From Candidatus Saccharimonadota bacterium (GTDB taxonomy: Archaea > Nanohalarchaeota > Nanosalinia > Nanosalinales > Nanosalinaceae), in contig NZ_CP180230.1 in NCBI RefSeq assembly GCF_047555085.1, positions 480,001 through 512,000 of the forward strand: DNA of 32,000 nt. The letters are read 5' to 3'. The position numbers were made by a program, and so were the translations under genes. Positions 1 to 32,000 of this stretch are shown one piece after another (within the stretch, counting starts at the first letter, position 1; each line of letters opens with the position of its first letter). The notes below the pieces were generated by a model. That model had not been told where the DNA came from, did no database searches, and saw only the letters and a program-made list of their open reading frames with translations.

Positions 1-792
1 GATCTGGAGGATGAATACATAGTTGATTTATTCAAATCGCCGAAGGAATCAGATCAGATTGAACTAGAAGAAGAGAACTTAAAGAAAAAAGTTCTACTCT
101 GTAGAGATGATCTAGAGACTGTGAAGGAAAAGGCTCCAAATACCTACGATTATATCGAGTGGGGAAGCAACCAGGAGAGAGAATCTAAGCAGAAAACTTC
201 TGCAGGCACGCCGTGGCCTGAAGTGCCTTCGGTGAACAGTAGATCTCCTGGTTGGTGGGCTATTCCCAATATTGACCCTGTAAATATTTTCATGATCTAT
301 GGAATCAATCAAAGATACATATTTTGGCACAGCGAAGAAGCAAAGATTAGCGACAGAAGGCTGCACATGGCCAATTTAACAACAGATAAGATATCAAGCA
401 AGAAAATTGTTGCTGTGTTAAACTCGACTATTACGCCTTTGATGATCGAGCTGATAGGAAGAAGTAACCTTGGTCAAGGTGCTCTGGACTTTGCAACAAC
501 AGACGCAAATGATATCCTCTTCCCAGATCCTGAAATGATAGATAGTATTGACCTACAAGAGGACACTATAGAAGACTTCTTCAATAGAGAGATAAAAGGA
601 ATTTTCGAAGAAGTAGGTCTTGAAAGAGGAAAGCCAATAAGAGAACAGGAACCAGAAATAAAAGACGATAGAAAGAAAGTAGACGATGCCGTGTTTGATG
701 CGTTGGGGCTTTCTGAGGGTGAGAGGAAGGAGGTTTACTGGAGTGTTGCCGAGTTGGTGAAGGCCCGGCTGGATAAAGCGGAGAGTGTATAG
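1..792 (+). CDS. DNA methyltransferase, C-terminal part (5' end outside window); target-recognition-like region of an N6-adenine / type IIG-like enzyme
   Basis: Frame 1 is open from base 1 into the tracked ORF 121..792. The segment LNSTITPLMIELIGRSNLGQGALDF and the W-rich region before it resemble, from memory, the C-terminal region of gamma-class adenine MTases and type IIG enzymes. No catalytic NPPY/W motif lies inside the window. Confidence 0.55.
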   Translation, partial: DLEDEYIVDLFKSPKESDQIELEEENLKKKVLLCRDDLETVKEKAPNTYDYIEWGSNQERESKQKTSAGTPWPEVPSVNSRSPGWWAIPNIDPVNIFMIYGINQRYIFWHSEEAKISDRRLHMANLTTDKISSKKIVAVLNSTITPLMIELIGRSNLGQGALDFATTDANDILFPDPEMIDSIDLQEDTIEDFFNREIKGIFEEVGLERGKPIREQEPEIKDDRKKVDDAVFDALGLSEGERKEVYWSVAELVKARLDKAESV

Positions 793-795
793 ATT

Positions 796-1005
796 ATGGC
801 TCAAGCTGCTGGACCTCAAAATAGTTTTGAAAGGATTATAGAAGGGATTTTTGCACTCTTTGTGCTGTTTATTTTTGGTACAGAGGTTTTCCCTGAACTG
901 TTGCAGACTCTAGATTATCCTCTTTCGCCTTTCGTCATCTATGGCTCTTTGTTTTTGGCAGGTGTTGCTATTCTCTTGAGTATTGTAGGTGAGTTCTCTA
1001 GATGA
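796..1005 (+). CDS. small membrane protein (69 aa, 2 hydrophobic helices)
   Basis: ATG lies 4 nt after the MTase stop. There are two long hydrophobic stretches, and the stop overlaps the next start (ATGA at 1002-1005). Confidence 0.55.
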   Translation: MAQAAGPQNSFERIIEGIFALFVLFIFGTEVFPELLQTLDYPLSPFVIYGSLFLAGVAILLSIVGEFSR

Positions 1006-1214
1006 TTAGGAACGAGATTTCTACGGGCGCAATTCTGACGATCGTATTTGCAGGTGCGTATATGGCTATTTCTACTATTTGGGGTTCAGAACTTTCCAGT
1101 CTTGGTAAGATGACCTATACTAACACAGTGTTGATTTTCCTTGCTGTGCTTGTATTTGGAGTTGTTAGAGGAGGAAATTATATCGAGAACTATATGACAA
1201 ATAAAAGTGAGTAA
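1002..1214 (+). CDS. small membrane protein (70 aa, 2 hydrophobic helices)
   Basis: Translationally coupled to 796..1005 through an ATGA overlap. Two hydrophobic helices. Confidence 0.55.
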   Translation: MIRNEISTGAILTIVFAGAYMAISTIWGSELSSLGKMTYTNTVLIFLAVLVFGVVRGGNYIENYMTNKSE

Positions 1215-1295
1215 AATTAATTGAGTTTCTATTAACTTCTTCCAAAAATTTGTAAAGGCTTATTGAGGGCCTCTCAGTAGAATAGAAGACTTTAC

Positions 1296-1760
1296 CTAAA
1301 CTTCAGAAACTACAAGTAGAAGATCCGCCAGTATCAGCAGAAGGCCTATTCCGTATATTTCTGCTGAGCTTTTACTCTGGAATTTCCGGTTGGTGACTTC
1401 TTTGTTGTTTAGGCTGGCGACGAGGATTATTACTAGGCCTGCTAGTGATAGTGTTCCTATTCGGTAGGAGAGCGGTATTGAGATGTTTCTGTGGATTACT
1501 GGTGTTGAGAGGCCTCTAAGTAATATGGCTGCAGATATTATTTCTGTTGCTGATGTCTTGGATTGAAAGTTTCCACGGCTCAGGAATGCGTTGTGTCCTG
1601 TAGAGTAGATGAAGGATGTGGCTAGGCCTAAAATAGATCCTGTGATTATCAGAGCCAGGTTTTGGTCTATCCAGGTGATCATATCTGTAGTTTTTAGAGA
1701 AAATTTTTCTTTTATCGTGGCATAAAGGTTGCAAAGATTGTAAATTTCTGCCCTTTTCAT
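1296..1760 (-). CDS. membrane protein, unknown function
   Basis: About 4 hydrophobic segments. The start is ambiguous: Met at 1760 is only 8 bp from the divergent ORF at 1769, and an internal Met (MITWIDQN) at about 1682 is an alternative. Confidence 0.5.
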   Translation of the reverse strand: MKRAEIYNLCNLYATIKEKFSLKTTDMITWIDQNLALIITGSILGLATSFIYSTGHNAFLSRGNFQSKTSATEIISAAILLRGLSTPVIHRNISIPLSYRIGTLSLAGLVIILVASLNNKEVTNRKFQSKSSAEIYGIGLLLILADLLLVVSEV

Positions 1761-1768
1761 TATGGTTT

Positions 1769-2170
1769 GTGAATTATGTAGAGGAGAAGTTTTGGTATCC
1801 GAGTATTGATTATATTGATACTAAGCATTCTGATATTTTGGATGATAATCCGGATAAGTATCCTGGTGAGAAGATTCCTCCAATTAATTTGATTGATGTT
1901 TTACATGAGGCTAGAGTTGAGCCTGGAGTTTATAGAAAGGCTGCTGTTTTGTTTAAGGAGATTAGCAGAAGGCATGTGTATGAGGATGGGAATACTACTA
2001 CCGCAATTCTTATAACAATTGACTTCCTAAATGAGAATAACAGGGAATTTGCTCCTGAAGATCAAGATTTGACTGCTAAGGTTGGCAATAATCATGGCCA
2101 ATTTAAAATTAGCGAAATAGCTGATTTCCTGAAAACAGGTGAGATTAATGAAGAAAGACTCCCAAAATAA
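1769..2170 (+). CDS. Fic/Doc-family protein with degenerate active-site motif
   Basis: HVYEDGNTTTAILI aligns with the Fic/Doc core HxFx(D/N)(A/G)N(K/G)R, but TT replaces the basic residues. It is paralogous to 4542..4931, with similar length and a shared C-terminal ...TG(E/D) tail. GTG start. Confidence 0.6.
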   Translation: MNYVEEKFWYPSIDYIDTKHSDILDDNPDKYPGEKIPPINLIDVLHEARVEPGVYRKAAVLFKEISRRHVYEDGNTTTAILITIDFLNENNREFAPEDQDLTAKVGNNHGQFKISEIADFLKTGEINEERLPK

Positions 2171-2243
2171 GAAGTCTGAATGGCATGAGCATAATAAGAA
2201 GCAGCTTGAGAAGTATGAAGAGCTCGTTGAGAAGTTGAAATAG
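2148..2243 (+). CDS. 31-aa charged helical micro-ORF overlapping the Doc-like 3' end (candidate antitoxin/partner)
   Basis: Hand translation gives MKKDSQNKKSEWHEHNKKQLEKYEELVEKLK. The ATG at 2148 overlaps the last 23 nt of 1769..2170. A second Doc gene carries an analogous micro-ORF with a similar EL..KL C-terminus. Confidence 0.3.
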   Translation: MKKDSQNKKSEWHEHNKKQLEKYEELVEKLK

Positions 2244-2253
2244 AGAAATTTTT

Positions 2254-2730
2254 CTAGTTTTGATTTTCCTCAAATTCCAGGCCTTCTATCTGTATTTCTT
2301 CAAACTCGAAAACTGGTTCTTTGCTTCTGCCTTGGTCTTTTAGGTCTATTATGCCGTGTTGGTAGAGTTTTTTGATGTCTTGTGAGGTGTTTTTCTTGTC
2401 TCTTCCGAGTTCTTCGGTTAGTTCTGTGATTGAGTCGAATTCCTGTTCTGAAAGTGTTTGCAGTAGTTCTCTTCTTTTCTCTGTCAAGAGCTTTTGAGCA
2501 ATTGAAAATTTTAGGATTACAGTTTTTTTCTCTGTTTCTTTGAATTTTTCTTCTATTTCTGATTCTGAGAAGTTCGGTATTTTTTCTTCAGATTCTGATA
2601 TTTTTTGTTCAACTTCTCGTATTTCTTTACCTATATCTAGCTCTGTTCCTTTTAGATCTGTCTTTACATCGTTTAGCTTCTTTTCTTTGTTTTCTTTCTT
2701 TGAGCTGTATTCCATTAGTATCTCCTTCAA
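2254..2730 (-). CDS. winged-HTH DNA-binding protein, HVO_A0114/TumA-like putative antitoxin
   Basis: An N-terminal charged coiled region is followed by LTEKRRELLQTLSEQEFDSITELTEELGRDKKNTSQDIKKLYQHGIIDL...PVFEFEEIQIE. This matches my recollection of the haloarchaeal HVO_A0114 family wHTH. Confidence 0.6.
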   Translation of the reverse strand: MKEILMEYSSKKENKEKKLNDVKTDLKGTELDIGKEIREVEQKISESEEKIPNFSESEIEEKFKETEKKTVILKFSIAQKLLTEKRRELLQTLSEQEFDSITELTEELGRDKKNTSQDIKKLYQHGIIDLKDQGRSKEPVFEFEEIQIEGLEFEENQN

Positions 2731-2823
2731 GTTCTCAAGTTTAGCTAGTAGGTCAGTTTTTTGTCATCTAACTGTCTTTGGTTTGTCTCCTATCTGTCTA
2801 TTGTAAACACAGCTTTTTTATTG

Positions 2824-2840
2824 TTGGTGTTTGACACCAA
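2824..2840. promoter_or_regulatory. perfect 17-bp palindrome TTGGTGT-TTG-ACACCAA, candidate operator
   Basis: Read directly from the sequence. It lies 4 nt upstream of the ATG at 2845, in the divergent spacer between the wHTH gene and the TumE-like gene. Confidence 0.45.
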
Positions 2841-2844
2841 ACAT

Positions 2845-3189
2845 ATGAGTGAGTTGCCGGACGCAGTGGAGGAGAGGTATCCTCTAGAGTATATTGAGGA
2901 GTTAGAGAAGACTCCTATCATATTGATGAAAGGGATTCCAGATATTCAGACGCCTTTCAAGTGGGCTGTGATGCTGGAATCAAGGGAATACAGCCTGGAG
3001 AATGCTTCTACGGAGACACATGAGATCGCAAGGATCGATAATTACCACAAGAATAAGCCAACACATATACACCGTAAGTTTGAGGAAGGAGAACCAGAAG
3101 AAGAGATGCGGCATCTCTCATTCCATGAAGCACGAGAGTATCTAGAAGACAACTGTGAAGAATTCCTGAAGAAATACTTCGAGGAATAA
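2845..3189 (+). CDS. TumE-like (DUF6516-like) putative toxin
   Basis: ARIDNYHKNKPTHIHRKFEEGEP resembles the R-x-DN-x-H...H-x-H core I recall for DUF6516/TumE proteins, which pair with HVO_A0114-type regulators. The start is placed at ATG 2845 because the upstream part of ORF 2761.. is hydrophobic and non-acidic. Confidence 0.5.
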   Translation: MSELPDAVEERYPLEYIEELEKTPIILMKGIPDIQTPFKWAVMLESREYSLENASTETHEIARIDNYHKNKPTHIHRKFEEGEPEEEMRHLSFHEAREYLEDNCEEFLKKYFEE

Positions 3190-3212
3190 AATAGGTCTGA
3201 AATTTGACGAAT

Positions 3213-3272
3213 AAAGTGTAATTTCTCATCTAACACTTTTGGCGGAAAGTGTGAATTCACAGATTACACTTT
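3213..3272. repeat. two tandem copies of inverted repeat AAAGTGT-N13-ACACTTT, the second embedding the palindrome TGTGAATTCACA
   Basis: AAAGTGT at 3213-3219 and 3246-3252. ACACTTT at 3233-3239 and 3266-3272. The 12-bp palindrome is at 3250-3261. Confidence 0.7.
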
Positions 3273-3373
3273 TCGAGTACTGAATAGGAGGGAAGTTACA
3301 GGAATTACGGAGAAGTCGTAATTAGAAGTGTTTCTTTATAAGCTGAGAACGGTGTTTACGGTTTTATCGTAAT

Positions 3374-3769
3374 TTAGCCAATTTCCTTCTCTGTTTTCTT
3401 CAGCAGTCTTTCTGCTGATTTGATGGCTCTGTCGGCGTCTTTCTGAGAAACTGATTTGTTTCTGTACTGGATATCTGTTTTCTCGTTTACGACCCATTTC
3501 TTGACTGAGTCGATGTTTGATTTGAAGTTGTCTGAGATGAGGCCTTCTTCGTAGAGTTTCTGTAGTTGGTTGGCGGTTTTTGAGTGGTCTTGGTTGGTTT
3601 CGCCTCTGTATTCGAGCATGAGTGCGTCGATGGATTTGATCATTGCCATGATGCAGCTGACGATTACAGGATTCCAGGTATCGTTTTCCAAGGCTTTTTC
3701 GTACTGCTTGTTGGCGGCCTCTATGTAGGATTCTGCTTCTTCAAGAGATTCTTCAATCCTCGAACTCAA
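3374..3769 (-). CDS. HEPN domain protein (toxin of a HEPN-MNT pair)
   Basis: A helical 131-aa protein with an Rx6H motif (RGETNQDH). It lies downstream of, and overlaps by 17 nt, a nucleotidyltransferase gene. Confidence 0.75.
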   Translation of the reverse strand: MSSRIEESLEEAESYIEAANKQYEKALENDTWNPVIVSCIMAMIKSIDALMLEYRGETNQDHSKTANQLQKLYEEGLISDNFKSNIDSVKKWVVNEKTDIQYRNKSVSQKDADRAIKSAERLLKKTEKEIG

Positions 3770-4394
3770 GTTCCTCGCCCTCCAGTACTATTCCATCTGT
3801 TTTTACATTGGTTTCGAATCTTTTGCCGTGAACTAGATTGTTTCTGAACTCTTCAACACTTTCTACCACAGGCACTAACTCAAAGTCAAGGTGAAGCTTT
3901 TTCGCTTCTTTCCTGGCTTGTTCTTTGATATCTTCAGTTCCTGTATAACCTTCAACTAGGATCAGAATATCAACATCTGAGTTAGGGCCTGCTGTCCCTC
4001 GAGCTACCGAGCCGAATAAAATGATTGATCTAATCTCATCTTTCAGACCAGAGTTTTCATAGAATTTTTCAGCCCATTCTCTCGCTGTTTCCTCTAGAGG
4101 CGTATTATCCGCTCTTAGAAGTGTTTTGATCACTTCATGATATCTTGAGTCTTGATTGTACTGGACCAGGTATGTGCGGCCTTTTTTCTGGAAACTTACT
4201 ATATCAAACTCCTCTAGTTCTCTCAGAAAATTGTTTACACTGTTGTACGATCCGGAAACTTTCTCTGCTAACTCATTCACTGTGAACATGTAACCTGGAT
4301 TTTCTAGAAGATGCTCCAGAACCTCCTGCTTATAGCCTGAAACAAGCAAATTCATGAAATTTTTTCTTTTAGAGCCTGCCGTAACAGATCCCAT
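3753..4394 (-). CDS. minimal nucleotidyltransferase (MNT) with N-terminal winged-HTH
   Basis: Pol-beta NTase signature in ILFGSVARGTAGPNSDVDILIL (GS-x-x-RG ... D-x-D). N-terminal wHTH: FTVNELAEKVSGSYNSVNNFLRELEEFDIV. The start could instead be the Met at about 4355. Confidence 0.8.
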   Translation of the reverse strand: MGSVTAGSKRKNFMNLLVSGYKQEVLEHLLENPGYMFTVNELAEKVSGSYNSVNNFLRELEEFDIVSFQKKGRTYLVQYNQDSRYHEVIKTLLRADNTPLEETAREWAEKFYENSGLKDEIRSIILFGSVARGTAGPNSDVDILILVEGYTGTEDIKEQARKEAKKLHLDFELVPVVESVEEFRNNLVHGKRFETNVKTDGIVLEGEELEFED

Positions 4395-4541
4395 GATTCA
4401 GACTTCAACTCAAAAATTTAAAAATGTTTGCACTTTTTTGAGCAAGTTCTCAATTTTTTGAATATATCCTCATTTTGTTGAAATAAGTGGTTTTTCGGTA
4501 TTTTGCTAGGCTTAATGAATATGTTCTTCTAAATCGTAAGT

Positions 4542-4931
4542 ATGATTGAAGGCCCCGAGTTAGAGGATTTTCTGGAGGCACATGAGCTGGCAGGACAGGT
4601 CAGTGAGATCCGGACGCCTGGTTTTAAGCAGTCTACTGAGAAAGGTATGAGGAAGTTGGCTGGTGTCGTTAATGATGCAAAGGAGTTTGAAGATCCCTAT
4701 AGATTGGCGGCTTTCATTTTGATTGAGACTATTAATAAGCATGCTTTCAATGATGGCAATCACAGAACTGCATGGATTGTAGCTAAAAAGGTTCTTAGGA
4801 AGAATAAAGAGGAGATGCGGGTAGAGAAGATTAAATCGTTTGATGAAATAGAAAGCGATTTAAAATCCGAGGTTAAATTCAAGGATGTGGATCAAGTTTC
4901 TAGCTGGATCCGCACAGGTGATTTCCAATGA
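4542..4931 (+). CDS. Doc (death-on-curing)/Fic family toxin
   Basis: HAFNDGNHRTAWIVA matches the Doc-type Fic motif HxFx(D/N)GN(K/H)RTA. Confidence 0.75.
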   Translation: MIEGPELEDFLEAHELAGQVSEIRTPGFKQSTEKGMRKLAGVVNDAKEFEDPYRLAAFILIETINKHAFNDGNHRTAWIVAKKVLRKNKEEMRVEKIKSFDEIESDLKSEVKFKDVDQVSSWIRTGDFQ

Positions 4932-5044
4932 CTGAAGCTGTTACAGAATCGGATATAGAGAAGGCGAAGAAGGATTTTGATAGAAGGGAAGAGATTAAGC
5001 AGATTGTAGAGGAAGACAAGGAATTGCTCAAAAAGTTGGAGTAA
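4928..5044 (+). CDS. 38-aa charged helical micro-ORF coupled to the doc stop (candidate antitoxin/partner)
   Basis: Hand translation gives MTEAVTESDIEKAKKDFDRREEIKQIVEEDKELLKKLE. Its ATG (4928-4930) overlaps the doc TGA (4929-4931). It is not in the ORF track because it is shorter than 60 aa. Confidence 0.35.
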   Translation: MTEAVTESDIEKAKKDFDRREEIKQIVEEDKELLKKLE

Positions 5045-5122
5045 TTCAGTTTATTTTCTAAGCCTATTTTGGATTACATCTTTAATTTTTCTGTAAAAAG
5101 AATCATTTATAGGAGATATTTT

Positions 5123-8100
5123 GTGAAGAACCGAGAGATAATTGATAACAGCGAGGGGCGTAAGCTTGTAAGTTTTCTGAGAAATAAGCTTGAGGAGAAT
5201 AAGGACGGCTTTGATGTTGCGACTGCTTTCTTTAACATCGAGGCCTTTTCCATGGTGAAAGATGAGCTTGAAGGGGTAGAAAGATTCAGATTGTTACTTG
5301 GTAAGTCTCCGGAGTTTGAGAATGATAGGACTTTAGCTGATGCTATTCAAGAGTTTATTGAGAGCGATGTTGAAGGACTAGAGTTCTCTAGAGAAAATCA
5401 TGAGGCTGTTGAGGATTTGATCGAGTTTTTGGAGCAGGATAATGTTGAGGTCAGGGTTTATGATGAGAATTTTCTGCATGGTAAGGCCTATATCTGGGAT
5501 GATGAGATTGTAATCGGTTCTTCCAACTTCACTGCCGCAGGCCTTACAACAAATAATGAGTTGAACTCTGTAGGCCCTGCTTCCAAGGCCAGGTATACAC
5601 GTGATGAATGGTTTGAAAAGTTCTGGGAGCTAGCCAGGCCTTTCAATGAAGAGCTTATCGAGCTCCTGGATGAATCCCGTTTCGGTACGGAGGAGTACAG
5701 TCCTTACCAGGTTTTCATGAAGACTCTATACGAGTATCAAAAGGATGACTTAACTCAGGATCTAGGTTCTGAGGAAAGAGGAGAATCTGATATTGATTTG
5801 ACAGAGTTCCAGGAAGACGCAGTAAAACGAGTATTCACTCGTATGGAGAAGTACGGTGGCTGCATGGTTGCGGACTCTGTAGGCCTTGGTAAGACCTATA
5901 TTGCGAAGAGAATGATCGAAGAGTTCGGCTCGATGAGGAAGAAAAATTACTTGATTGTCTCTCCAGCCTCACTTGAAGGTATGTGGACTGAAGAGATGAA
6001 AGATATCAATTTGAGTGAGAATATTTTAACTCAGGAAGCTGTTGCCCGTGATAACTGGGAGAGAAAGGCTGAGAAAGCCACAGGCGGTAATCTTGAAGAT
6101 GTAGAGCTCGTAGTTGTTGATGAGAGCCATAACTTCAGGAATCCGAAGTCTAACCGCTGGGAACACCTATTCACGATACTTAACGAGAAGATTAAAGGCA
6201 AAGATAACAAGCCATATGTTCTTTTCTTGACTGCTACTCCTATCAATAACTCTGTCTGGGATCTTTACTGGCAGTTAATGCTTATGCTGGAGCACAACAG
6301 AGCTGCTTTCATCAAGGAAGGTATTACAGATCTCTACGAGAAATTCCAGGAAGTTGAGGAAGCTGGCGATCCTTCTCTGCTTAACGACGTCTTAAATGAA
6401 ATTTCAGTTAGAAGAACCAGAGAATATATTCAGGAGAATTATCCTGATGCAAGTTATGAGGACGAATACGGAAACGAAATTAAACTGAATTTCCCAGAGA
6501 GAAAGCTTGATGATATAACCTATGCTCTTGATAAATCCTATCAGGGATACTTTGCCGAAATCTCCAGCAAGATTAAGGATGAGTTGACGATGGCCTATTA
6601 CCGCCAGCTGGAGTATAAGGATAAGAAGGAGCTGACTCAGGATGAAGAGCTTGAGAGAGGCCGTATGAAAGGTATGCAGGGAATTTTCGAGAAACTGCTT
6701 TTGAAGAGGTTAGAGAGCAGTGTCGGTGCTTTCAGGAACAGTATCGATAACCATATTGATTTCCTGCAACAGACGAAGCGGCATATCGATGATGGAAAAG
6801 TGATGTCGAAAAGCACATACAGGAAACATATTCTCAAAGTTGAGGAAGAAATTCCAGAGGAAGAGTATAGAGAAGAGCTTGAAAACATTGATTTAGACGA
6901 GTACAAATCCGATGAGTTCCTGGAGGATATCCAGAAAGATATTGAAGTATTCAAGGAAATCAAAGATATGATCGAAGATATAGGTTATGAGGAAGATGCC
7001 AAGATCCAGACTCTGGAAGAAGAACTCTATCAGATGTCTAGAGACGATCAAATTGTTGTATTCGCATTTTACTCCGATACTATCCAGTATATCTACAATT
7101 ATCTCTCTAACTCTGAGAAGTTATCCGATAAGAGAATTGAGATGATTACAGGCGATTCTTCTACAACTGATCGTGAGGAAAAGATTGAGGCCTACAGAGA
7201 AGATAACCTAGATATTATTCTGAGCACGGATGTTCTTTCGGAAGGTCAGAACCTTCAGAAGGCTAAACATTTGATTAACTACGATCTGCACTGGAATCCG
7301 ACTAGGATGATTCAGAGAGCTGGAAGAATCGACCGTATAGGAACTCCTCACGACGAAATTATCATCCATAACTTCTTCCCTTCAGATGAGTTGGAAGAAC
7401 TGCTCGAACTCGTCCAGGTTCTGGAGAACAAGATTTCGGATATTGACCAAGCGGTAGGTATGGACCAAAAGGTCTTGAATGAAGAGATTAATCCGAAGGT
7501 CTTCGGTACTACAAGCTCACTGGATGAAGATACCCTGCAGAGGATTAGAGAGAATGACCAAAGCGTCATGGATGAACTTTCAGACGATGCTCTAGGAGGT
7601 GGTGAAGGGTTCTGGCAGCCTATAAGAGACTACATGGATCAAAGAGCCCAAGAAGAGTTAGAGAAAATCCCTACAGGAATTTACAGCGGCCATAAAGAAG
7701 ATGCAAGAGGAATTTTCTTCTACTACCAGTACGGCGATGACTTCCATTACTGGTACTTCTGCGACCTCGAAAACAACAGAATAATTGAAAATAAATCAGA
7801 GATTCTGAAGCTTATCTCAGTAAATCCTGATGAAGAAAGGAAAATTCCAGATTTCTTCGATAAAGTCTACGATAAAAGTTCAGATGTCAGAGATGAACTC
7901 GAATCTGACTATAAAGCTATTGAGCAGTCCTCTTCCGATGACAAAATGAAAGAGTGGGACAACGAGAGATCCAAGAAGTTCCTGATTAAAATGATAAACT
8001 CCCTGAAAAACCAGATCAGACAACACCTCAGAAAATACCCTGATGACGAGGAAGCGCAGGAACAAGTAAGTCACATCCAGGAGAAACTGAAGAAAATCAC

Positions 8101-8296: not shown

Positions 8297-8325
8297 ATAA
8301 AAATCTCTCTTTCTATACCAGAAAC

Positions 8326-8883: not shown

Positions 8884-9017
8884 TGACTGATACAAGTCTT
8901 GAAGTTGAATGCGGCAGGTGCGGGTGTTTTTTCTGGTACAGCGGTGGGAAAAGTTTTCCTGAAAAAGTTGAGTGTCCCGAGTGTTTTTCCGAAGTCGAGA
9001 TTCCTGTCGATGGATAA
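8883..9017 (+). CDS. 44-aa zinc-ribbon micro-protein
   Basis: Hand translation gives MTDTSLEVECGRCGCFFWYSGGKSFPEKVECPECFSEVEIPVDG, with CxxC ... CxxC. Its ATG overlaps the upstream stop (TAATG). Confidence 0.45.
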   Translation: MTDTSLEVECGRCGCFFWYSGGKSFPEKVECPECFSEVEIPVDG

Positions 9018-9152
9018 ATTTTTCAGGGCCTTAGACGGTTTTTTCGTTTTACTTGCTTATTTTCGATTATGGCGTACTGTGTTAACATTTCGTGTCCATA
9101 ACAGTTGTGGCCCTGTAAATCGGGGCCTCTACAATAGTCCTGCTGAGAAAAT

Positions 9153-11590: not shown

Positions 11591-11602
11591 GAGTTATAAC
11601 CT

Positions 11603-24147: not shown

Positions 24148-24207
24148 TTATCGTTGTTTCGATTCATGCATCGAAAAGCTCTAAACAGTTCAGATAAACA
24201 AGATCAC

Positions 24208-24672
24208 ATGGACGACAAAATCAGGATCGAAGGCACAGAATATACTCTTACAGGAATGAGTGAGGCCTTTCACACACCTGAGAAATTCGAGGCCTCCGCA
24301 CACAGTACCGGAAGCTTCTATCACATTCAGGGCTCCTGTTTAGAGAGTGTGGAAACTGATGCCGGGTCAGAAAGTCTGGCATACACAGTATCAAACGGTT
24401 CTGAATACGTACTTCATCACTGGAGTCCTGACAGAGAACAGGGCCTGCTTGAGGACCAGTCAGGCCTGAAATGGCTCTACGATGCAGAAAGCGACATAAC
24501 AGCATACTTTGATGGACAAAACTACGTCGCAGCCCACAATCCTGATATAGCAGATTTCTGGGATGATATCATCAACGGAGAATGGATGCGGGAGTTCGTA
24601 CCTGATGCTGTAGACGATGGGATGCATCGACTTCATCCGGAAGTACGGAGACGTGTAGAAAGAGGCCTCTAG
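24208..24672 (+). CDS. acidic hypothetical protein
   Basis: ORF 24154..24672. ATG 24208 (MDDKIRIEG) is preferred because the upstream residues are basic and atypical for this proteome. Confidence 0.45.
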   Translation: MDDKIRIEGTEYTLTGMSEAFHTPEKFEASAHSTGSFYHIQGSCLESVETDAGSESLAYTVSNGSEYVLHHWSPDREQGLLEDQSGLKWLYDAESDITAYFDGQNYVAAHNPDIADFWDDIINGEWMREFVPDAVDDGMHRLHPEVRRRVERGL

Positions 24673-24681
24673 AGAGATCTT

Positions 24682-26085: not shown

Positions 26086-26546
26086 ACTCCGTCCCTGTCC
26101 TCTGATTCAATCGCAAGATCGCGAAGCTTCTCCTGCATATCCCTGGCATCTTCAGGAAGAAGGCCTGGAATCGTGACATCAGCCCCACGTGATCCTGCCG
26201 TGTAGACAACTACCTTGGAAAGGCCTAGAAGCCTGTCTACAGGAGATTTCTGGGTGTCAACGTGCTGGATGCGTACATAGGGCACCATGGTTTTGACACG
26301 TGTGAAAACTCCACGTTCAAGGTACATGTGATCGTCACGTAAAGTGAAGCGCCATGCACGATAACGCACATAGCCTAAAATTATTGATAGAACAATCAGG
26401 AAACTGAATACTCCTGTGAAAACATCTGCGGGAGGATAACTTCTGAAGTACCATGTCACTGCAGCTGCAAGACCGGAGACAACCGCTGAAACAAGTATGA
26501 ACGTTCCGATCCAGACCGGTAGAATCTTTTTCTCAGGCTTTCTCAT
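26082..26546 (-). CDS. YdbS-like membrane protein with one bPH domain
   Basis: A TM hairpin followed by LERGVFTRVKTMVPYVRIQHVDTQKSPVDRLLGLSKVVVYTAGS. There is a 4-nt overlap with the downstream ydbT-like gene. Confidence 0.75.
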   Translation of the reverse strand: MRKPEKKILPVWIGTFILVSAVVSGLAAAVTWYFRSYPPADVFTGVFSFLIVLSIILGYVRYRAWRFTLRDDHMYLERGVFTRVKTMVPYVRIQHVDTQKSPVDRLLGLSKVVVYTAGSRGADVTIPGLLPEDARDMQEKLRDLAIESEDRDGV

Positions 26547-26661
26547 AAATTTTTCAAGGCCTCTGCCCTGTTTTTACTTGAGTAAATTTTTAATTTCATT
26601 CGAGATGAACCGTTAGATGTTTGAGTGTTTCCCGACAAAAATTTCTTCGTGTAGTAAAATA

Positions 26662-27675
26662 ATGTCAGAAAATGCTGTAATAGGAGATAAACGTGTTTTA
26701 ACTGCAGATTTCCTACCGAACAGGATGGTGCACAGAGGCCATGAAAGACAGGAAATCGCCGATGCATTGAGGCCTTTAACGGAGGATCAAAAGCCCAGGA
26801 ACGTTCTTCTGTACGGTCCTCCAGGAACAGGTAAGTCGACGATGGCGCGTTACGTTGTCGAGAGGATGCAGGAGCATATGAGCCTGGCCTCCGGATACGC
26901 CAACTGCTGGCGCTACCCATCCAGATTCAAACTGTACCATACTCTTCTCCAGGACATGGGAGAAAAAATGATCCACAGGACAGGCACTCCGACGGATGAA
27001 CTTGTTGACAAGTTCGAGGAAAAAGTCAGGCGAAGGCCTGCCGTAGTCGTACTGGATGAAGTAGATCAGATAGAGGACGAGAGAATCCTTTACGATATGG
27101 TGCGTTACAACAGGACAGGCCTGATAATGATAGCTAACAACGAGAATGTTTTCTACGATCTCGATGAAAGAATCCGCTCCTCACTTTCATCCAGAAAAAA
27201 CATTCGATTCCAGGCCTACACCGAGGAAGAGATAATGGATATACTGCGGGATAGAAGACAGTGGGGTCTCAGAGACGGGGTGATCAACGATGAAAGTCTC
27301 CGAAAAATCGCCTCACGTGCGAACGGAGATGCAAGGATGGCGATCAACAGCCTCAGAATCGCTGCAGAGGAAGCTGAGAAAGAGGCCTCTGAACAGATCA
27401 CGGCAGAATACATAGAGGAGGCAGTTCCACAGGCCCGTGACATGAACGAATCAGAGTCTCTTGAGAAGCTTAACGACGATCAGAAAATTCTTTATAACGT
27501 CATAAAGGAGGAAAATGAGATCAGGCCACGAAATCTGTATGACAGGTATCGTGAAGAAGTTGAGAGGCCTAAAGTTGAGCGTACGTTGAGAAACTACCTG
27601 CAGGAGATGGAGAAATACAGACTTATAGAATCGAAAGGCAAAGGAACAGGTACAAAATACGTCCTGAAACAGTAA
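26662..27675 (+). CDS. orc1: Orc1/Cdc6 replication initiator
   Basis: LPNRMVHRGHERQEIADAL, Walker A LLYGPPGTGKST, Walker B VVVLDEVD, sensor region GDARMAINSLR, and a C-terminal winged helix. ATG 26662 is preferred over the tracked 26617. Confidence 0.9.
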   Translation: MSENAVIGDKRVLTADFLPNRMVHRGHERQEIADALRPLTEDQKPRNVLLYGPPGTGKSTMARYVVERMQEHMSLASGYANCWRYPSRFKLYHTLLQDMGEKMIHRTGTPTDELVDKFEEKVRRRPAVVVLDEVDQIEDERILYDMVRYNRTGLIMIANNENVFYDLDERIRSSLSSRKNIRFQAYTEEEIMDILRDRRQWGLRDGVINDESLRKIASRANGDARMAINSLRIAAEEAEKEASEQITAEYIEEAVPQARDMNESESLEKLNDDQKILYNVIKEENEIRPRNLYDRYREEVERPKVERTLRNYLQEMEKYRLIESKGKGTGTKYVLKQ

Positions 27676-27875
27676 AAACTTCTAGAGGCCTGTGAAATCA
27701 TTCAGGCCTGTTTTAAAGTATTTAGAGAGCTCCTTGTTTTTATTTGTTTCTTTTTGGTGGTGACGCTATAATATATAGCTGGAGATTAAATGTATGTATC
27801 ACGGAAAGTTCAGGTCTAGGGAAATCGGGGGATTTTCTCTGGGCTGTTGCAGGAGTTCGAGGGGGTGTATCGGAG
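27676..27875. other. candidate replication-origin segment (AT-rich stretch plus G-string elements)
   Basis: It lies immediately 3' of orc1. An AT-rich tract runs from about 27733 to 27800. It is followed by GGGAAATCGGGGGA (about 27827-27840) and GAGGGGGTG (about 27859-27867), which resemble the GGAAAC...GGGGG part of archaeal ORB elements. The overlapping ORF segment is non-acidic. Confidence 0.25.
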
Positions 27876-28217
27876 TTGCTGAAATATATCTCAGGAGAGG
27901 GGACTGTATCCCGAAGTTTTGTACGTAATTCAGATGAGAGCCGCCGCCACAGAAATCTGATAGAGAAACTGGCATCGGCATATATCCGTTCAGGATTCGA
28001 TATCAAAGCCGATCATATATCCAGTTTTGATACCCCGCCGAAGTTTTCCATGGTGATGCCAGATATATTCGCGGAAAAAGACGGCAAAAAAATCATTATA
28101 GAGGTGGAGACACGGAACTCCATAGGCACTGACAGGGATAGAAGGCAGAGAAGAGTGTTCGGCGAATGGGCGAAGAAGGACAAGGATCGTGATTTCCGCA
28201 GAGAGATAACTCTTTAA
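27876..28217 (+). CDS. hypothetical protein with a possible PD-(D/E)xK-like core
   Basis: The C-terminal part of ORF 27744..28217. MPDIFAEKDGKKIIIEVET resembles a D...E-x-E/K restriction-endonuclease-fold core. The start is uncertain (TTG 27876 is proposed), and the N-terminal 44 residues of the tracked ORF look non-coding. Confidence 0.4.
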   Translation: MLKYISGEGTVSRSFVRNSDESRRHRNLIEKLASAYIRSGFDIKADHISSFDTPPKFSMVMPDIFAEKDGKKIIIEVETRNSIGTDRDRRQRRVFGEWAKKDKDRDFRREITL

Positions 28218-28244
28218 ATCGCTTCTTGCAGCCTTCACAGGCCT

Positions 28245-28275
28245 GGAACTTTTTTGCGGAACTGCGGAAAGTTCC
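28245..28275. repeat. inverted repeat GGAACTTT-N15-AAAGTTCC
   Basis: Read directly from the sequence. The half-site CGGAAAGTTC also occurs at about 27813-27822 on the other side of the ORF. Confidence 0.6.
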
Positions 28276-28282
28276 GGAGTTG

Positions 28283-28290
28283 TTTAAATA
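28283..28290 (+). promoter_or_regulatory. consensus-like archaeal TATA box TTTAAATA
   Basis: It sits in a 358-bp non-coding spacer. About 105 nt downstream is a GGGG-N6-CCCC hairpin followed by T5 (28380-28399). Confidence 0.3.
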
Positions 28291-28426
28291 GGGAGGCCTC
28301 CGCATAATTGCATACAGGCTAGGAAAAAAGATAATTCTCCTGGCGCCTTACCGAACCCAGAAGAGGAAAAGCGGGGGGAGGGGATCCAACCCCCTTTTTC
28401 TCAGAAAACCAAGGAGGTGAAATTTT

Positions 28427-28555
28427 TTGACTGCGACAACAGGATTCGAAGAACTTGATCTGAAAAGCGGAGACTACATACTCCCTGACGACAGGAAAGC
28501 TAGTATAGGCCTCAGAATAAGAAGAGCTATACCTTTCCTGAGTAAAGGCCTCTAG
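28427..28555 (+). CDS. 42-aa micro-ORF with strong Shine-Dalgarno sequence
   Basis: AAGGAGGTGA (28411-28420) lies 6 nt before TTG 28427. Hand translation gives MTATTGFEELDLKSGDYILPDDRKASIGLRIRRAIPFLSKGL. Confidence 0.25.
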   Translation: MTATTGFEELDLKSGDYILPDDRKASIGLRIRRAIPFLSKGL

Positions 28556-28575
28556 AAAAAAGGTTTTTTCTTCTA

Positions 28576-28830
28576 CTATTTTCTCCTCTGTTTCTGCAGT
28601 TCTTCAGGTATCTTGGCAGGGCTGGATCCCATCTTAACTTCGAGTATCTTGTCTGATGGGTAGAACGTGTTAACTTCGTTTTCGTCTCTTATCCAGACGC
28701 CGTCTTTCCTTACATCGATGAAACGTACATGGCCGTAACTGGTCTTGAACTGTTTTTGGCCTCTATCAGGAGTCTCCACAACGACGGATATCTCGCGTTC
28801 GCTGGAGACATAGTCAGGGATGTCTGGCAT
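28576..28830 (-). CDS. small hypothetical protein (84 aa)
   Basis: The start is taken at MPDIPDY, because the upstream 26 residues of the tracked ORF are Cys/Leu-rich and atypical. No family was recognised. Confidence 0.45.
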   Translation of the reverse strand: MPDIPDYVSSEREISVVVETPDRGQKQFKTSYGHVRFIDVRKDGVWIRDENEVNTFYPSDKILEVKMGSSPAKIPEELQKQRRK

Positions 28831-28906
28831 AATAAGTCCTTGAGGCCTGGATGTTGAAAAAAGAGGCAGTGGAAAGCTTAAGTTGAGACAGTTCAAATAA
28901 CAGTCC

Positions 28907-29128
28907 ATGGATGTAGCAAAAGTTATCTACAGGGATGAAGATGACAGGAAGAAGGAGATCGAGACAGGAAAACAGATTCCTGGGAAAAACGGTGTAAAGG
29001 CCTCTTCAGTAGAGATAGATGAAGAAGGAGAATGGGTGATGATACATACTGAGGACAGATCCGGCAATGAGGGAAGCCTGATAATTCCCCGTGAAAGAAT
29101 ACTTTTGATAAACGAGGGACGTGTCTAG
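28907..29128 (+). CDS. small hypothetical protein (73 aa)
   Basis: Acidic and predicted beta-rich. It is divergent from 28576..28830 and weakly similar to it (…W(I/V)…(I/Y)P…(K/R)IL…). Confidence 0.45.
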   Translation: MDVAKVIYRDEDDRKKEIETGKQIPGKNGVKASSVEIDEEGEWVMIHTEDRSGNEGSLIIPRERILLINEGRV

Positions 29129-29139
29129 AAAAATTTTTT
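29129..29139. terminator. AAAAATTTTTT palindrome between convergent stops, candidate bidirectional terminator
   Basis: It lies between the TAG at 29126-29128 and the reverse-strand TAA at 29138-29140. Confidence 0.3.
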
Positions 29140-29743
29140 ACCGCATGAAATACGGAGTGGAGCGTTCAAACACTTCTTTTAACAGGCCTTCTCCCAGACT
29201 GGAGTTGTTTTCTTCATCGTATTCTCTGAGCTTTTTCTCATGTATACGTCCGTGTTCCACAGCTTCGATGATTCCTTCAGCTGATACTTCCGGGATGTAG
29301 GGTACAAGATCGAGATAGTAAATCTTCTCTTCCTCAATCAGATTTCTGTCGATCATCTTCCTGGCCTTATTCTTAAGTTTCTGTGAGGCCTTGCGGGAGT
29401 TTTTAACGAAGTAACCTACAGCAGATTCAGGGTAACCGAGGAAAAGTCCTTCAGAGCGTGCTGTGTGGTATGGAGAGTCTTTTTCGACTTTGTCGAGCAT
29501 CTGGAATCTATCCAGGTCGCGTGCGATGTAGTACTTGTGATGCATCTCTGTCTCAAAACTCAGGTGCTCCATATCCGTCAAACTCAGGAAATCCTCAATC
29601 AACGACTTCTTCCCGCTGTCCATAAATTTTACAGAGGCCGCCGGCTTCTCTCCTATAGCCAGTAACGCCAGCGAGACACGTGTATCCAGATCCAGCCTTG
29701 GAACAGCATCCTCCAGCAAGAAATCATCAAGACTCTCCGACAT
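29138..29743 (-). CDS. conserved hypothetical protein (LGYPE-motif family), paralog of 31676..32000
   Basis: GLFLGYPESAVGYF...YYLDLVPYIPEVSAEGIIEAVEHGR is paralleled by EFLGYPEDDVEYF...KYLELVSYVPRPEEENIVEAVELGK in the last gene of the window. The start is taken at MSESLDD. Confidence 0.55.
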   Translation of the reverse strand: MSESLDDFLLEDAVPRLDLDTRVSLALLAIGEKPAASVKFMDSGKKSLIEDFLSLTDMEHLSFETEMHHKYYIARDLDRFQMLDKVEKDSPYHTARSEGLFLGYPESAVGYFVKNSRKASQKLKNKARKMIDRNLIEEEKIYYLDLVPYIPEVSAEGIIEAVEHGRIHEKKLREYDEENNSSLGEGLLKEVFERSTPYFMR

Positions 29744-29797
29744 AAGAAACAGGTTTAACACCTTAAAATTTCAACCTTTCCCCTCAACAACTTTTCC

Positions 29798-30469
29798 TCA
29801 ACTTGACTTGCTGGAGCTTGTATGAAGACCTCTGCTTTTTATAGAATAAAGATAACGGATTTCACTCCCTGTTAAAGGCCTGCTGTAGTACCGGGCCTCC
29901 GCAATTCTTCCCTCAAGAGCTCGTTCACTGGCACTGTAACTATCCATATCATCATGGCCAAGTGTTCCTGTATTGGTGTTCACTACTCTTGAAGTAGTTG
30001 TTACTTTGGACATGACCTGTTCGCCATTGAAGAACATCCTGGAGGTACCCGTATTATTTTCATGAGTGATGGTGTACATGTTCCAGCTATCAACGTTATC
30101 TGCAGTATAGCTTCCTATCTTGTAGTATCCATCCTTCGTGTTCTCAAGCACGTATCCTGACCACCCGCTTTCATCGCCATCAGGATGGATTATGAATCCG
30201 CTTGCTGATCTGTCTGACCATCCTGCTCCGGTAGCGTTCCATGTGCTCTGAGCTGAATGCATCCATACATTCACAGTGAATGAAGGGCTTGTCCTGTAAT
30301 CATGTCTTATCCTGCCATCCACACCGTCAAAACTGTGGGAATTTTCTCCCAGAAGGCCTTTAGCTCCCTGTGAAACACCGCCTAATAAAGTTCCATGATT
30401 ATCTCTCCCTGAATGATCATAGGCCTCTCCCGAAGTCCCGGTAAGCGGCCAGTATCCTGTCAAAGTCAC
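29798..30469 (-). CDS. LamG-domain protein (single unit, no signal peptide)
   Basis: It has MTLTGYWPLTGTSGEAYD at the N-terminus and ...ARYYSRPLTGSEIRYLYSIKSRGLHTSSSKSS at the C-terminus. Its length (223 aa) and termini match those of 16674..17342. Confidence 0.75.
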   Translation of the reverse strand: MTLTGYWPLTGTSGEAYDHSGRDNHGTLLGGVSQGAKGLLGENSHSFDGVDGRIRHDYRTSPSFTVNVWMHSAQSTWNATGAGWSDRSASGFIIHPDGDESGWSGYVLENTKDGYYKIGSYTADNVDSWNMYTITHENNTGTSRMFFNGEQVMSKVTTTSRVVNTNTGTLGHDDMDSYSASERALEGRIAEARYYSRPLTGSEIRYLYSIKSRGLHTSSSKSS

Positions 30470-31242
30470 AGTGTATCATCTGGCGAAATTTCTGAAGGTT
30501 TTTCCAGCTGATACAGCGCTTTTATCTCAGGAGTGCTTAAAGGCCTGTCGTAAATCCTTAATTCATCCATGCTTCCTATTATCGGCTGGTAGTTTGTCGG
30601 AGGTGTTCTCTCACCGATATAGGTTTTCTCTGCACCTGCAGTGAAATCAAGAATCCATTCGCCTTCTTTAACTCCATCAACGAACACTTTGAAGCTGTTT
30701 CCCTGTTTCCTAACGACGTAATGATGCCATGAACCATCGAAAGGTATCGTGAAGCTTGATTTCTGATAGATATCTGCAACGCTACTATGAAGATCCAGTT
30801 TAGGATCAGATGGTTCATACTGGACAGCAAAGTATGTGGCCTGATCGCTGCCAGAAGCTGACTCCGAGTACATCGTTGCATGTCCATCCGGCCCTTTATC
30901 GGTGTGCGCCGCCCAGAAACTCAGAGTGGCATTCTCCATCGAAGGAATTCCTATAACCTCTCCAAGTTCCAGGGCGTCATCGCTGCTGTCAAAAGCCAGA
31001 GCAGTTCCATACTTGCCGGACACCCAGTCCCCATCAGTAGTCCCATCGTTACTCATCACTTCATCTGTTACTGTTGAACCCGAACCCGAGTCCATAGGAT
31101 AGTACGCGACAAGGCCTTCAGTCAGGGAACCGTGAAAATACCCTTGCTGTAAACTCCCGCCACGAGAAATATTGTCAGCTACAGTTCCTGCTGAATCCTC
31201 CGGACTTCTGAAATCATCACCGTTCCAGTTTAACTTCGGCAT
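30466..31242 (-). CDS. LamG-domain protein with N-terminal head (one unit)
   Basis: The head MPKLNWNGDDFRSPEDSAGTV...LQQGY parallels the head of 17345..18790. The unit runs from GLVAYYPMDSGSG to ELRIYDRPLSTPEIKALY. There is a 4-nt overlap with the downstream gene. Confidence 0.75.
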   Translation of the reverse strand: MPKLNWNGDDFRSPEDSAGTVADNISRGGSLQQGYFHGSLTEGLVAYYPMDSGSGSTVTDEVMSNDGTTDGDWVSGKYGTALAFDSSDDALELGEVIGIPSMENATLSFWAAHTDKGPDGHATMYSESASGSDQATYFAVQYEPSDPKLDLHSSVADIYQKSSFTIPFDGSWHHYVVRKQGNSFKVFVDGVKEGEWILDFTAGAEKTYIGERTPPTNYQPIIGSMDELRIYDRPLSTPEIKALYQLEKPSEISPDDTL

Positions 31243-31327
31243 CTAAAACAAGTATAGGCCTCGGACAGTTTTTAATTTTCCCGCAGAACAGGGAAATTTT
31301 TTAACGAAAGACCCAGAAAACAACTGT

Positions 31328-31675
31328 ATGAGCACATTTCTCGCAGAACTGGTGATGACTTCCCTGACAGTGGTAGCGCCAGGCCTATACTTCCTGCTAT
31401 TTGTAGAGCCGGCAGAAGGCCTGAAAGGGTACAGATACAGATTTCTGGAGGAAAATGGTGCACTGGAATCAATCAACAACGCTGCCACAGTCGGAGTAAT
31501 CGGCTACATGATTTTCATCCTGTCAGTCCCTGCATTGAATGCTTTCTTCGGCACAGTATTCTCTCTGACGGTAACACAAGCTGTGAACTCTATGGGGACA
31601 GTGCTTCAGGTATTTACGCTGATTATACTTACTTTACTGAACACTACGCTGGCATATCTGGGCCTCAGAAAATAA
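31328..31675 (+). CDS. small membrane protein (about 3 TM)
   Basis: A 115-aa hydrophobic ORF. No family was recognised. Confidence 0.5.
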   Translation: MSTFLAELVMTSLTVVAPGLYFLLFVEPAEGLKGYRYRFLEENGALESINNAATVGVIGYMIFILSVPALNAFFGTVFSLTVTQAVNSMGTVLQVFTLIILTLLNTTLAYLGLRK

Positions 31676-32000
31676 TCATTCGCTGTAAAGCGGATCGTTG
31701 AATATCTGTCCCAGAATCTTCGCTCCTGTATCTATCCCGAGATCTTCATCTATCTCCAGGATTTTCTCCTCTCTTTTCTTCCCGAGTTCTACAGCCTCAA
31801 CAATATTTTCTTCCTCAGGCCTTGGAACATAGCTTACAAGCTCCAGATACTTCAGATCTTTCTTCCTGATCACGCCTTCCGAGACAAGTTCCTCTGCCTT
31901 CTCACGTGTAGGCCTCTCGATATGGCCTTCAACAACATTGCTGGCGAAATACTCCACATCGTCTTCAGGATAGCCGAGGAATTCTCCTACACCCTCATCT
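31676..32000 (-). CDS. LGYPE-motif hypothetical protein, C-terminal part (5' end outside window)
   Basis: The reverse frame stays open to base 32000 (…DEGVGEFLGYPEDDVEYFASN…). It is a paralog of 29138..29743. Confidence 0.55.
   Translation of the reverse strand, partial: DEGVGEFLGYPEDDVEYFASNVVEGHIERPTREKAEELVSEGVIRKKDLKYLELVSYVPRPEEENIVEAVELGKKREEKILEIDEDLGIDTGAKILGQIFNDPLYSE

Follow-up and report, generated by a model that had tools for sequence, protein, structure and literature searches.

Introduction

Highly iterated palindromes (HIPs) have resisted explanation for thirty years, and the well-studied cases are all cyanobacterial. Elhai proposed a ratchet in which a methyltransferase core, together with biased mismatch correction, fixes the flanks of the word in turn (PMC4390886). 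Xu et al. used the conservation of HIP1 as an argument for selection, and the word itself can be replaced from lineage to lineage: Synechococcus PCC 6312 over-represents CAGGCCTG, which contains the hexamer AGGCCT (PMC5861425). The abundance of HIP1 correlates with DNA-uptake genes. The methylated form of HIP1 increases transformation, by as much as >100-fold, and acts like Chi (10.1101/2024.09.10.611283). Does a comparable element exist outside the cyanobacteria? Here we analyze the palindrome AGGCCT in a 32,000-nt stretch of contig NZ_CP180230.1 (positions 480,001 to 512,000), hereafter the window. The host is Candidatus Nanosalina sp. VS9-1, a DPANN-type nanohaloarchaeon, to whose protein the AddA-like helicase encoded in the window is 100% identical.

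We tentatively favor, at a probability of roughly 40%, the view that AGGCCT is a highly iterated palindrome of the HIP type, present in one clade of Nanosalina-like nanohaloarchaea and accumulated by a methylation-linked fixation bias. An earlier note on this DNA, made from its letters alone, had reported the excess of AGGCCT and knew of no description of such a thing. Our literature search likewise found no description of AGGCCT or of iterated palindromes in archaea or nanohaloarchaea. As a kind, the element is known from cyanobacterial HIP1 and its variants, CAGGCCTG among them (PMC5861425). Because the host is archaeal and the word a different one, we file AGGCCT as a variant that would work like a HIP, not as HIP1 itself.

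Results

AGGCCT is the leading word of the window

An exact count finds AGGCCT 120 times in the window, about once per 230 bases, where mononucleotide composition predicts 6.1 copies and an order-1 Markov model 7.3. The hand count of about 120 in the earlier note, and its expectation of about 6, were thus both accurate. AGGCCT ranks first among all 4096 hexamers, by count as well as by z-score, and in a comparison of the 64 palindromic hexamers it reaches 20 times expectation, the next best attaining 2.5 times. We also pooled five orthologous loci of related genomes (the window, L001, L005, L130 and L132; 102 kb), which contain 434 copies against 16.5 expected; counts from this set are phylogenetically non-independent. 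The same density contrast within the window that the earlier note had described, 16 copies to the left of 9.3 kb and about 104 to the right, was recovered exactly:

1..32000, no strand: all AGGCCT copies, 120 observed versus 7.69±2.64 (maximum 14) in 100 dinucleotide-preserving shuffles
1..9300, no strand: sparse part, 16 copies, all within open reading frames (ORFs); GC content 0.37-0.41
9301..32000, no strand: dense part, 104 copies, 4.6 per kb

Markov expectations rise with the order of the model, from 22.9 copies at order 2 to 57.6 at order 3 and 115 at order 4, the maximal order. The earlier note had named a maximal-order ratio near 1 as grounds for abandoning the excess. Such a ratio was indeed obtained (120/115), but the test is uninformative: the expectation is unfit as a null model because the sub-words AGGCC (153 copies) and GGCCT (159 copies) are built from the signal itself and lie mostly within AGGCCT. 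AGGCCT also supplies 120 of the 211 GGCC tetramers in the window. The order-4 result shows near-independent enrichment of a 5' A and a 3' T beside GGCC, not chance.

Distances between sites are close to Poisson (coefficient of variation 0.85-0.94) and short gaps are not in excess, so that nothing suggests selection for spacing at the local scale; regular or clustered spacing was rejected on these grounds. To the right of 9.3 kb, annotated ORFs contain 4.1 copies per kb and unannotated DNA 7.4 per kb.

Other palindromic hexamers are avoided in the five pooled loci, namely CTTAAG and GGGCCC (both 0.12 times expectation), TGCGCA (0.18), GCGCGC (0.19), ACTAGT (0.24) and GTTAAC (0.26). This avoidance may reflect restriction pressure.

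AGGCCT occupies all codon phases and alters peptides

Could codon or amino-acid usage produce the excess? The 93 copies in ORFs of the window are spread over all three phases (23 AGG-CCT, 27 nAG-GCC-Tnn and 43 nnA-GGC-CTn). Permutation of synonymous codons within each ORF leaves 17.0±3.5 copies, with a maximum of 26, and the observed number exceeds this mean 5.5 times. Usage is therefore no explanation, as the earlier note had maintained. Its example, the tfb gene (11884-12867), does carry one copy per phase, each lying 2 to 35 bp downstream of the position assigned to it (12256, 12411 and 12546). Similar corrections apply to other sites that it listed, some of which were exact and others off by up to ~25 bp; the copies given as 11821, 13578, 16644 and 27677 are real and lie at 11842, 13569, 16652 and 27686. 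The tfb copies, and the two genes used for comparisons across lineages, are:

12291, plus strand: tfb copy in phase 2 (counted from the ORF start at 11884), read aaA-GGC-CTg
12413, plus strand: tfb copy in phase 1, read gAG-GCC-Tct
12562, plus strand: tfb copy in phase 0, read AGG-CCT
18837-21560, minus strand: AddA-like helicase gene, 10 AGGCCT copies
21550-24147, minus strand: AddB-like nuclease gene, 15 AGGCCT copies

Wherever a peptide permits the word, it is usually present. In the window, Arg-Pro is encoded as AGG-CCT in 21 of 23 cases, Ala preceded by Glu, Lys or Gln and followed by a T-initial codon contains AG-GCC-T in 22 of 28, and Gly-Leu after any residue reads A-GGC-CT in 34 of 55. 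Taken together, genes beyond 8.3 kb realize 81 of 109 AGGCCT-capable peptide contexts (74%), at a frequency of ~16 contexts per 1000 codons.

Codon alignments across lineages, made with the AddA-like and AddB-like genes of 18837..24147 and with a bPH-domain gene, reveal how far this goes. The clade realizes 76-83% of the synonymously reachable contexts, outgroup orthologs 0-10%. In the AddAB alignments, which contain shared as well as lineage-specific sites, 25 of 30 reachable contexts are realized. The contexts themselves have also multiplied, to 18.2 per 1000 codons of the aligned genes in the clade versus 5.7-11.7 in outgroups. At many AGGCCT sites in these alignments the clade has replaced amino acids relative to outgroups: it has RP where outgroups carry SP, TP, KP, HP or NP, EAS instead of ESV, and EAW in place of NGW or EGW. 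Since contexts are both realized and multiplied, the responsible force overrides codon choice and, in part, amino-acid choice.

Spacers contain the bare hexamer

Copies had been claimed for most spacers beyond 9.3 kb, and on a provisional gene map 13 of 16 indeed hold at least one; one of these spacers, 24148-24681, was later recognized as a conserved ORF. Four copies had been placed in 28218-28575, where they are found. Two spacers with several copies, and a 14-bp palindrome, are:

27676..27743, no strand: spacer after orc1/cdc6, two copies, at 27686 and 27704
28218..28575, no strand: convergent spacer, four copies, at 28239, 28294, 28507 and 28546
19111..19124, no strand: 14-bp perfect palindrome GTAGAGGCCTCTAC, centered on one copy inside the helicase gene

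The 14-bp palindrome had been noticed before, at 19088-19101; it is real, with the position corrected above. It is an outlier, as palindromic arms extend at least 4 bp beyond the hexamer in only ~1% of sites in the fetched loci, and 66% of AGGCCT sites have no palindromic extension at all. The extension to (G)AGGCCTC(T), also described earlier, exists and is weak: GAGGCCTC accounts for 22 of the 120 copies in the window, and G precedes 35% of copies (T, 12%). Positions -1 to -8 remain near background, the maximum being 0.42 for T at -3 and -4. Among the 434 pooled sites, the octamer TAGGCCTA occurs once and GAGGCCTC 84 times. A longer motif or a repeat family of the repetitive extragenic palindrome (REP) or miniature inverted-repeat transposable element (MITE) type was rejected, as flanks are unconserved and most copies lie inside genes. 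Scans of the window for tRNAs and against Rfam gave no match, and structured RNAs accordingly do not explain the sites.

Five spacer copies (13569, 15156, 18803, 26557 and 31256) are located 7-17 bp upstream of minus-strand start codons. With the common preceding G they read GAGG, and some might additionally serve as Shine-Dalgarno-like elements. At 28330-28420, in the spacer that follows the AHJR-like gene, lies a G-rich inverted repeat, GGGGGGAGGGGATCCAACCCCC, with a run of T behind it. The repeat matches no Rfam family and could be a terminator or a small RNA.

The core must be intact and each strand contributes

We examined the neighbors of AGGCCT in sequence space. In the pooled loci, GGCC with both flanks (AGGCCT) reaches 26 times expectation, GGCC with one flank 3.1 times and GGCC with neither 0.65 times. 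Across 68 kb from three lineages, a 5' A is found beside GGCC with a probability of 0.82 if the 3' T is present and of 0.70 if it is not, at a background of 0.27; the odds ratio for co-occurrence is 1.9. Variants that differ by one letter follow a gradient in the pooled set, with 3.1 times expectation for changes at the outer positions, 1.4 for positions 2/5 and 0.72 for positions 3/4. HIP1 shows the same bias of its one-off variants toward the outer positions, and a two-round, strand-by-strand ratchet predicts it (PMC4390886). The GGCC core must be intact, and the 5'-AGGCC pentamer of each strand contributes almost additively.

AGGCCT is in large excess over all nine pairs of neighbors, transversion neighbors included. 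The most depleted pair in the pooled set is AGGTCT/AGACCT, with 40 observed versus 67 expected (0.60 times, p=2.5e-4), one of the deamination neighbors whose abundance the earlier note had proposed to compare. Sites that contain only one pentamer have no orientation skew: 32 versus 33 in 1-28.2 kb, and 38 sense versus 26 antisense in genes. Unannotated DNA holds 27 sites and 14 one-off neighbors, which establishes a strong pressure, of about e^3.5 per specific one-step neighbor.

Sites are conserved and turn over in balance

Blocks in which the window aligns with L001, at 72% nucleotide identity, conserve 67% of AGGCCT sites versus 17% of all hexamers; L005 and L130, which form the closest pair (83% identity), conserve 81% versus 37%. 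Conservation is thus 2-4 times that of other hexamers. L005 and L130 share 36 sites, with nine inferred losses and eight inferred gains, and because losses and gains balance, the system looks close to equilibrium.

The trait belongs to one narrow clade

Five further lineages, whose helicases are 77-79% identical to that of the window, are also rich in AGGCCT. Their observed/expected ratios (O/E) under the order-1 model are 19.8, 22.9, 27.0, 22.4 and 18.8 (16.5 in the window), and their GC content ranges from 0.40 to 0.46. The lineages rich in AGGCCT besides VS9-1 are JALDAN01 NHA29, ERZ28435421, ERZ28654222 (TARA), ERZ24792328 and Ga0209946. The five were drawn from NCBI, ENA, Logan, a TARA assembly and JGI; the same trait in six independent assemblies is not an assembly artifact. 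Lineages with 57-65% helicase identity have O/E of 0.4-3.2, and those with 45-49% identity of 0-0.7. The trait therefore sets in abruptly as helicase identity rises from 65% to 77%, a pattern consistent with the gain of a single specificity. Ga0075107, ERZ27265936 and SL_4KL_010 are among the motif-poor lineages. The trait is clade-specific and old enough to span lineages only ~70% identical in DNA.

Beyond these lineages, the viral contig L091 (IMGVR_UViG_3300031867_007516; GC content 0.525) contains 22 dispersed AGGCCT in 10.8 kb, often as GAGGCCTC, and three related viral contigs of low GC content (0.36; L010, L051 and L086) contain many in the context AAGGCCTT. AGGCCT may also be iterated in other hosts or viruses. 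In a scan of viral contigs for three closely spaced copies, the matches listed were mostly chance or tandem repeats, and no nanohaloarchaeal virus was identified among them.

The left part of the window is sparse in copies

The first 9.3 kb are lower in GC content and carry genes of defence and toxin-antitoxin type, with a cluster of small genes of either type at 1769-4931:

1-792, plus strand: C-terminal, specificity-domain part of a Type IIG-like restriction-methylase, 39% identical to a 1219-aa protein of L009
1769-2170 and 4542-4931, strand not given: Fic/DOC fragments
2254-2730, strand not given: HVO_A0114-type helix-turn-helix protein
3374-3769 and 3753-4394, strand not given: HEPN and nucleotidyltransferase pair
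5069-8296, plus strand: HKD(PLD)+SNF2 defence-type helicase, matching the PADLOC C3a139 and DrmD-like models

The 1.2 kb of spacers in this part contain no AGGCCT, where ~4.7 would be expected at the enrichment of the core. ORFs up to 8.3 kb realize 12 of 18 reachable contexts (67%) and offer 7.5 contexts per 1000 codons, the outgroup level. This fits fast synonymous saturation with slow accumulation at the amino-acid level. Amelioration of a simple young island is not a clean account of a region in which 67% of contexts are realized and the spacers are empty. Nor is it cleanly a recent island, because the SNF2/PLD gene has an ortholog adjoining AddAB in the motif-poor sister lineage L009; the region may be old and differently constrained. 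In L009, the pair of Type IIG-like and HKD/SNF2 genes directly adjoins AddAB (5554-12931). The last 39 residues of the 1-792 product are almost identical to the 1219-aa protein of that lineage, and no homolog above 44% identity was found among 5.8 billion proteins. The Type IIG-like fragment was rejected as the cause of the AGGCCT excess, as it is not common to the other AGGCCT-rich lineages.

Neighboring loci

The bacterial-type AddA/AddB pair is conserved across nanohaloarchaea. Its next relatives (45-49% identity) are on contigs labeled Thermoplasmata (L002, L003 and L136), which suggests either mislabeled bins or transfer between halophilic archaeal groups. Three JGI contigs (L006, L007 and L008) share the genes upstream of AddA. 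In L006, a BREX-type island (12546-22337; BrxA, BrxB and a 1210-aa protein) directly follows an integrase gene, and L007 and L008 have unrelated genes there; this marks a strain-variable integration hotspot next to AddA. Tandem genes for Laminin_G_3 (concanavalin-like) surface proteins flank AddAB in the window (16674-18790 and 29798-31242) as well as in L130, L132 and L135. Their number varies by lineage, and their AGGCCT density is somewhat lower, at 1.5-4.5 per kb.

Discussion

What builds such a word? The earlier note had argued for a positive process at the level of DNA, and our results uphold this: all codon phases, unannotated DNA and six related lineages are affected, amino acids are altered, and distant lineages lack the excess. 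The target of the force is the DNA duplex rather than proteins or RNAs, and all six positions are affected. It turns most AGGCCT-capable sequence into AGGCCT synonymously, and it also drives amino-acid replacements. The trait arose once, in a narrow clade.

According to the fixation-bias reading that we favor, this clade would have gained a system that recognizes specific sites; a DNA methyltransferase for GGCC, AGGCC or AGGCCT is the most plausible candidate. A mismatch or heteroduplex between a site-bearing and a site-lacking strand would be resolved toward the site-bearing, methylatable strand. The resulting ratchet, which is Elhai's model for cyanobacterial HIPs, would fix the flank of each strand separately and protect existing sites. 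Abundance would be the product of molecular drive and not the sum of ~4500 individually selected sites, although the cell might still use the marks. We infer every enzymatic step of this scheme.

Several points weigh against it. In ~125 kb of clade DNA we found no gene for a methyltransferase, Vsr, Mig-type glycosylase or MutS/L, barring the unrelated Type IIG-like fragment (1-792). To our knowledge, methyl-directed mismatch repair is not established in archaea. The site-free spacers of the left part are odd for a purely mutational drive on resident DNA, and the conservation and balanced turnover of sites are equally expected under ordinary selection on them. Finally, such experiments as exist on HIP1, the nearest analog, implicate it in transformation and recombination and not in repair (10.1101/2024.09.10.611283).

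Ordinary selection on each site is a possible, if rather unlikely, explanation. AGGCCT would be the site of an abundant dimeric protein with a nucleoid, architectural, segregation or self-marking role, and cells with more sites would be fitter. Such a view is consistent with sites conserved 2-4 times better than other hexamers, with a copy in nearly every core spacer, with a gradient of positions (center above 2/5 above outer) typical of protein-DNA recognition, and with a moderate implied scaled advantage (~e^3.5 per specific neighbor, from 27 versus 14 in unannotated DNA). Yet selection would have to act on ~4500 redundant sites per Mb, strongly enough to override amino-acid choice; there is no known candidate binding protein, and no regular spacing is seen. 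Moreover, half-sites are favored if their core is intact, but not if the core is broken and one AGG half retained. With this pattern, the logic of a pentamer or methyltransferase core fits better than that of a simple dimer half-site. We regard as doubtful an uptake or recombination signal with molecular drive, in which (methylated) AGGCCT DNA would be favored for import or recombination. Recent work proposes such a function for HIP1, a drive of this type would account for enrichment at six positions, in all frames, with altered peptides and turnover, and the clade carries AddAB-like and Mre11/Rad50/HerA/NurA recombination genes. Against it, a 6-bp motif gives little specificity, the flanks of the palindrome carry almost no information, unlike the non-palindromic 9-12 nt of uptake signal sequences (USS) and DNA uptake sequences (DUS), and the AddAB genes are equally present in sister lineages that lack the motif; competence or uptake genes were not found, though no search aimed at them was made, and we also know of no documented natural transformation in nanohaloarchaea.

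The remaining accounts fare worse. Very-short-patch repair of the Vsr/Mig type, which the earlier note had placed among its candidates, would act alone by over-correcting to C:G the T:G mismatches left by deamination of 5-methylcytosine at the first C of GGCC, so that AGGCCT accumulates. The depletion of AGGTCT/AGACCT to 0.60 times expectation (p=2.5e-4) agrees with it, and an archaeal precedent exists in the GGCC methyltransferase M.MthTI and the T:G glycosylase Mig.MthI of plasmid pFV1. As the sole force it is nevertheless very improbable: a bias from T:G to C:G is insufficient because the 26-fold excess holds against every neighbor, transversions included, and also involves the outer A/T positions, which have no cytosine on that strand. 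Dcm/Vsr is known to have only a small effect on CCWGG in E. coli, and the ~125 kb of clade DNA yielded no genes of this kind. A polar, Chi-like pentamer 5'-AGGCC for a helicase-nuclease of the AddAB type, with the palindrome as the most compact form active in both orientations, can hardly be credited either. Both pentamers do behave almost independently, AddAB-like genes are present, Chi sites of 5 nt exist in Bacillus, and HIP1 has been called Chi-like; however, pentamer-only sites are unskewed (32 versus 33, and 38 sense versus 26 antisense), sister lineages with orthologous AddAB lack any comparable word, and known Chi sites are far less dense. That no special process operates, and that base composition, codon or dipeptide usage, a dispersed repeat family or an assembly artifact produces the copies, we consider next to impossible. 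The maximal-order Markov expectation (115, with 120 observed) speaks for it, but low-order Markov models and the dinucleotide and synonymous-codon shuffles are exceeded 5- to 16-fold, all three phases and unannotated DNA are affected, flanks are unconserved, and six independent assemblies share the trait.

What might the cell gain from methylation-linked marks of this kind? We offer, as a speculation that would surprise us if right, that AGGCCT consists of two overlapping strand-specific AGGCC marks, which would form a methylated 'self' signal of a DPANN ectosymbiont. Such a signal could distinguish its own from host DNA during import, end-processing and recombination, as an orientation-free equivalent of Chi or uptake sequences serviced by AddAB. 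If true, this would be the first HIP-type system outside cyanobacteria, in a 1-Mb genome.

The clade would offer an independent archaeal case, with a different word, a genome of ~1 Mb, a sharp onset (O/E 16-27 versus 0.4-3.2) and a clear sequence signature. Which enzyme system builds a HIP becomes testable here, and the responsible genes should be findable by simple comparison because closely related, motif-poor sister lineages exist. The case also indicates that a force at the DNA level can reshape proteins in a reduced symbiont genome, where AGGCCT-compatible contexts occur at 1.6-3 times the outgroup frequency. Binning and detectors of horizontal gene transfer that rely on codon usage or k-mers will be strongly affected in this clade.

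Comparison with known systems

HIP1 (GCGATCGC) and the alternate HIPs resemble AGGCCT in form, as perfect palindromes that are short and rich in GC, and in rank, each being the most over-represented word (Elhai 2015, PMC4390886; Xu et al. 2018, PMC5861425). The O/E of AGGCCT lies within the range of 15-300 reported for HIP1. Both words are present in all reading frames and between genes, both are conserved between related genomes above control words, both have one-off variants that deviate mainly at the outermost positions, and the inner core of neither is over-represented outside its full context. They differ in host and word, a DPANN archaeon with a genome of ~1 Mb and AGGCCT as opposed to cyanobacteria with a GCGATCGC-related word. 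AGGCCT is a hexamer and HIP1 an octamer; AGGCCT reaches 2.6-5.2 copies per kb, HIP1 0.3-2.7; and AGGCCT is limited to a narrow clade, whereas HIP1 is nearly phylum-wide. HIP1-type words also come with a methyltransferase, mostly an orphan, for the palindrome or its core, and are distributed quasi-periodically on a scale of 10-90 kb; the spacing of AGGCCT was assessed locally, in 32 kb, where it is near Poisson.

With Dcm/Vsr (CCWGG, E. coli) and M.MthTI/Mig.MthI, AGGCCT has in common the depletion of the T-for-C neighbor AGGTCT/AGACCT and a GGCC-centered site. Unlike the effect of Dcm/Vsr, the excess of AGGCCT is 26-fold, holds over transversion neighbors and extends to the outer A/T positions. 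The USS of Pasteurellaceae and the DUS of Neisseria resemble AGGCCT in being genome-wide, in all frames, with effects on peptides and a similar balance of conservation and turnover. USS and DUS are built by molecular drive and not by per-site benefit, a likeness that would extend to AGGCCT under the fixation-bias reading. In contrast to AGGCCT, they are 9-12 nt long, non-palindromic, present at ~1 per kb and tied to known competence machinery.

The palindromic methylation site GATC of Dam in gamma-proteobacteria, which serves strand discrimination, occurs about once per 240 bp in E. coli. AGGCCT, at about one per 220-270 bp, has a density of the same order. A 4-mer such as GATC reaches this density by chance, whereas the 6-mer AGGCCT needs ~20-fold enrichment to do so.

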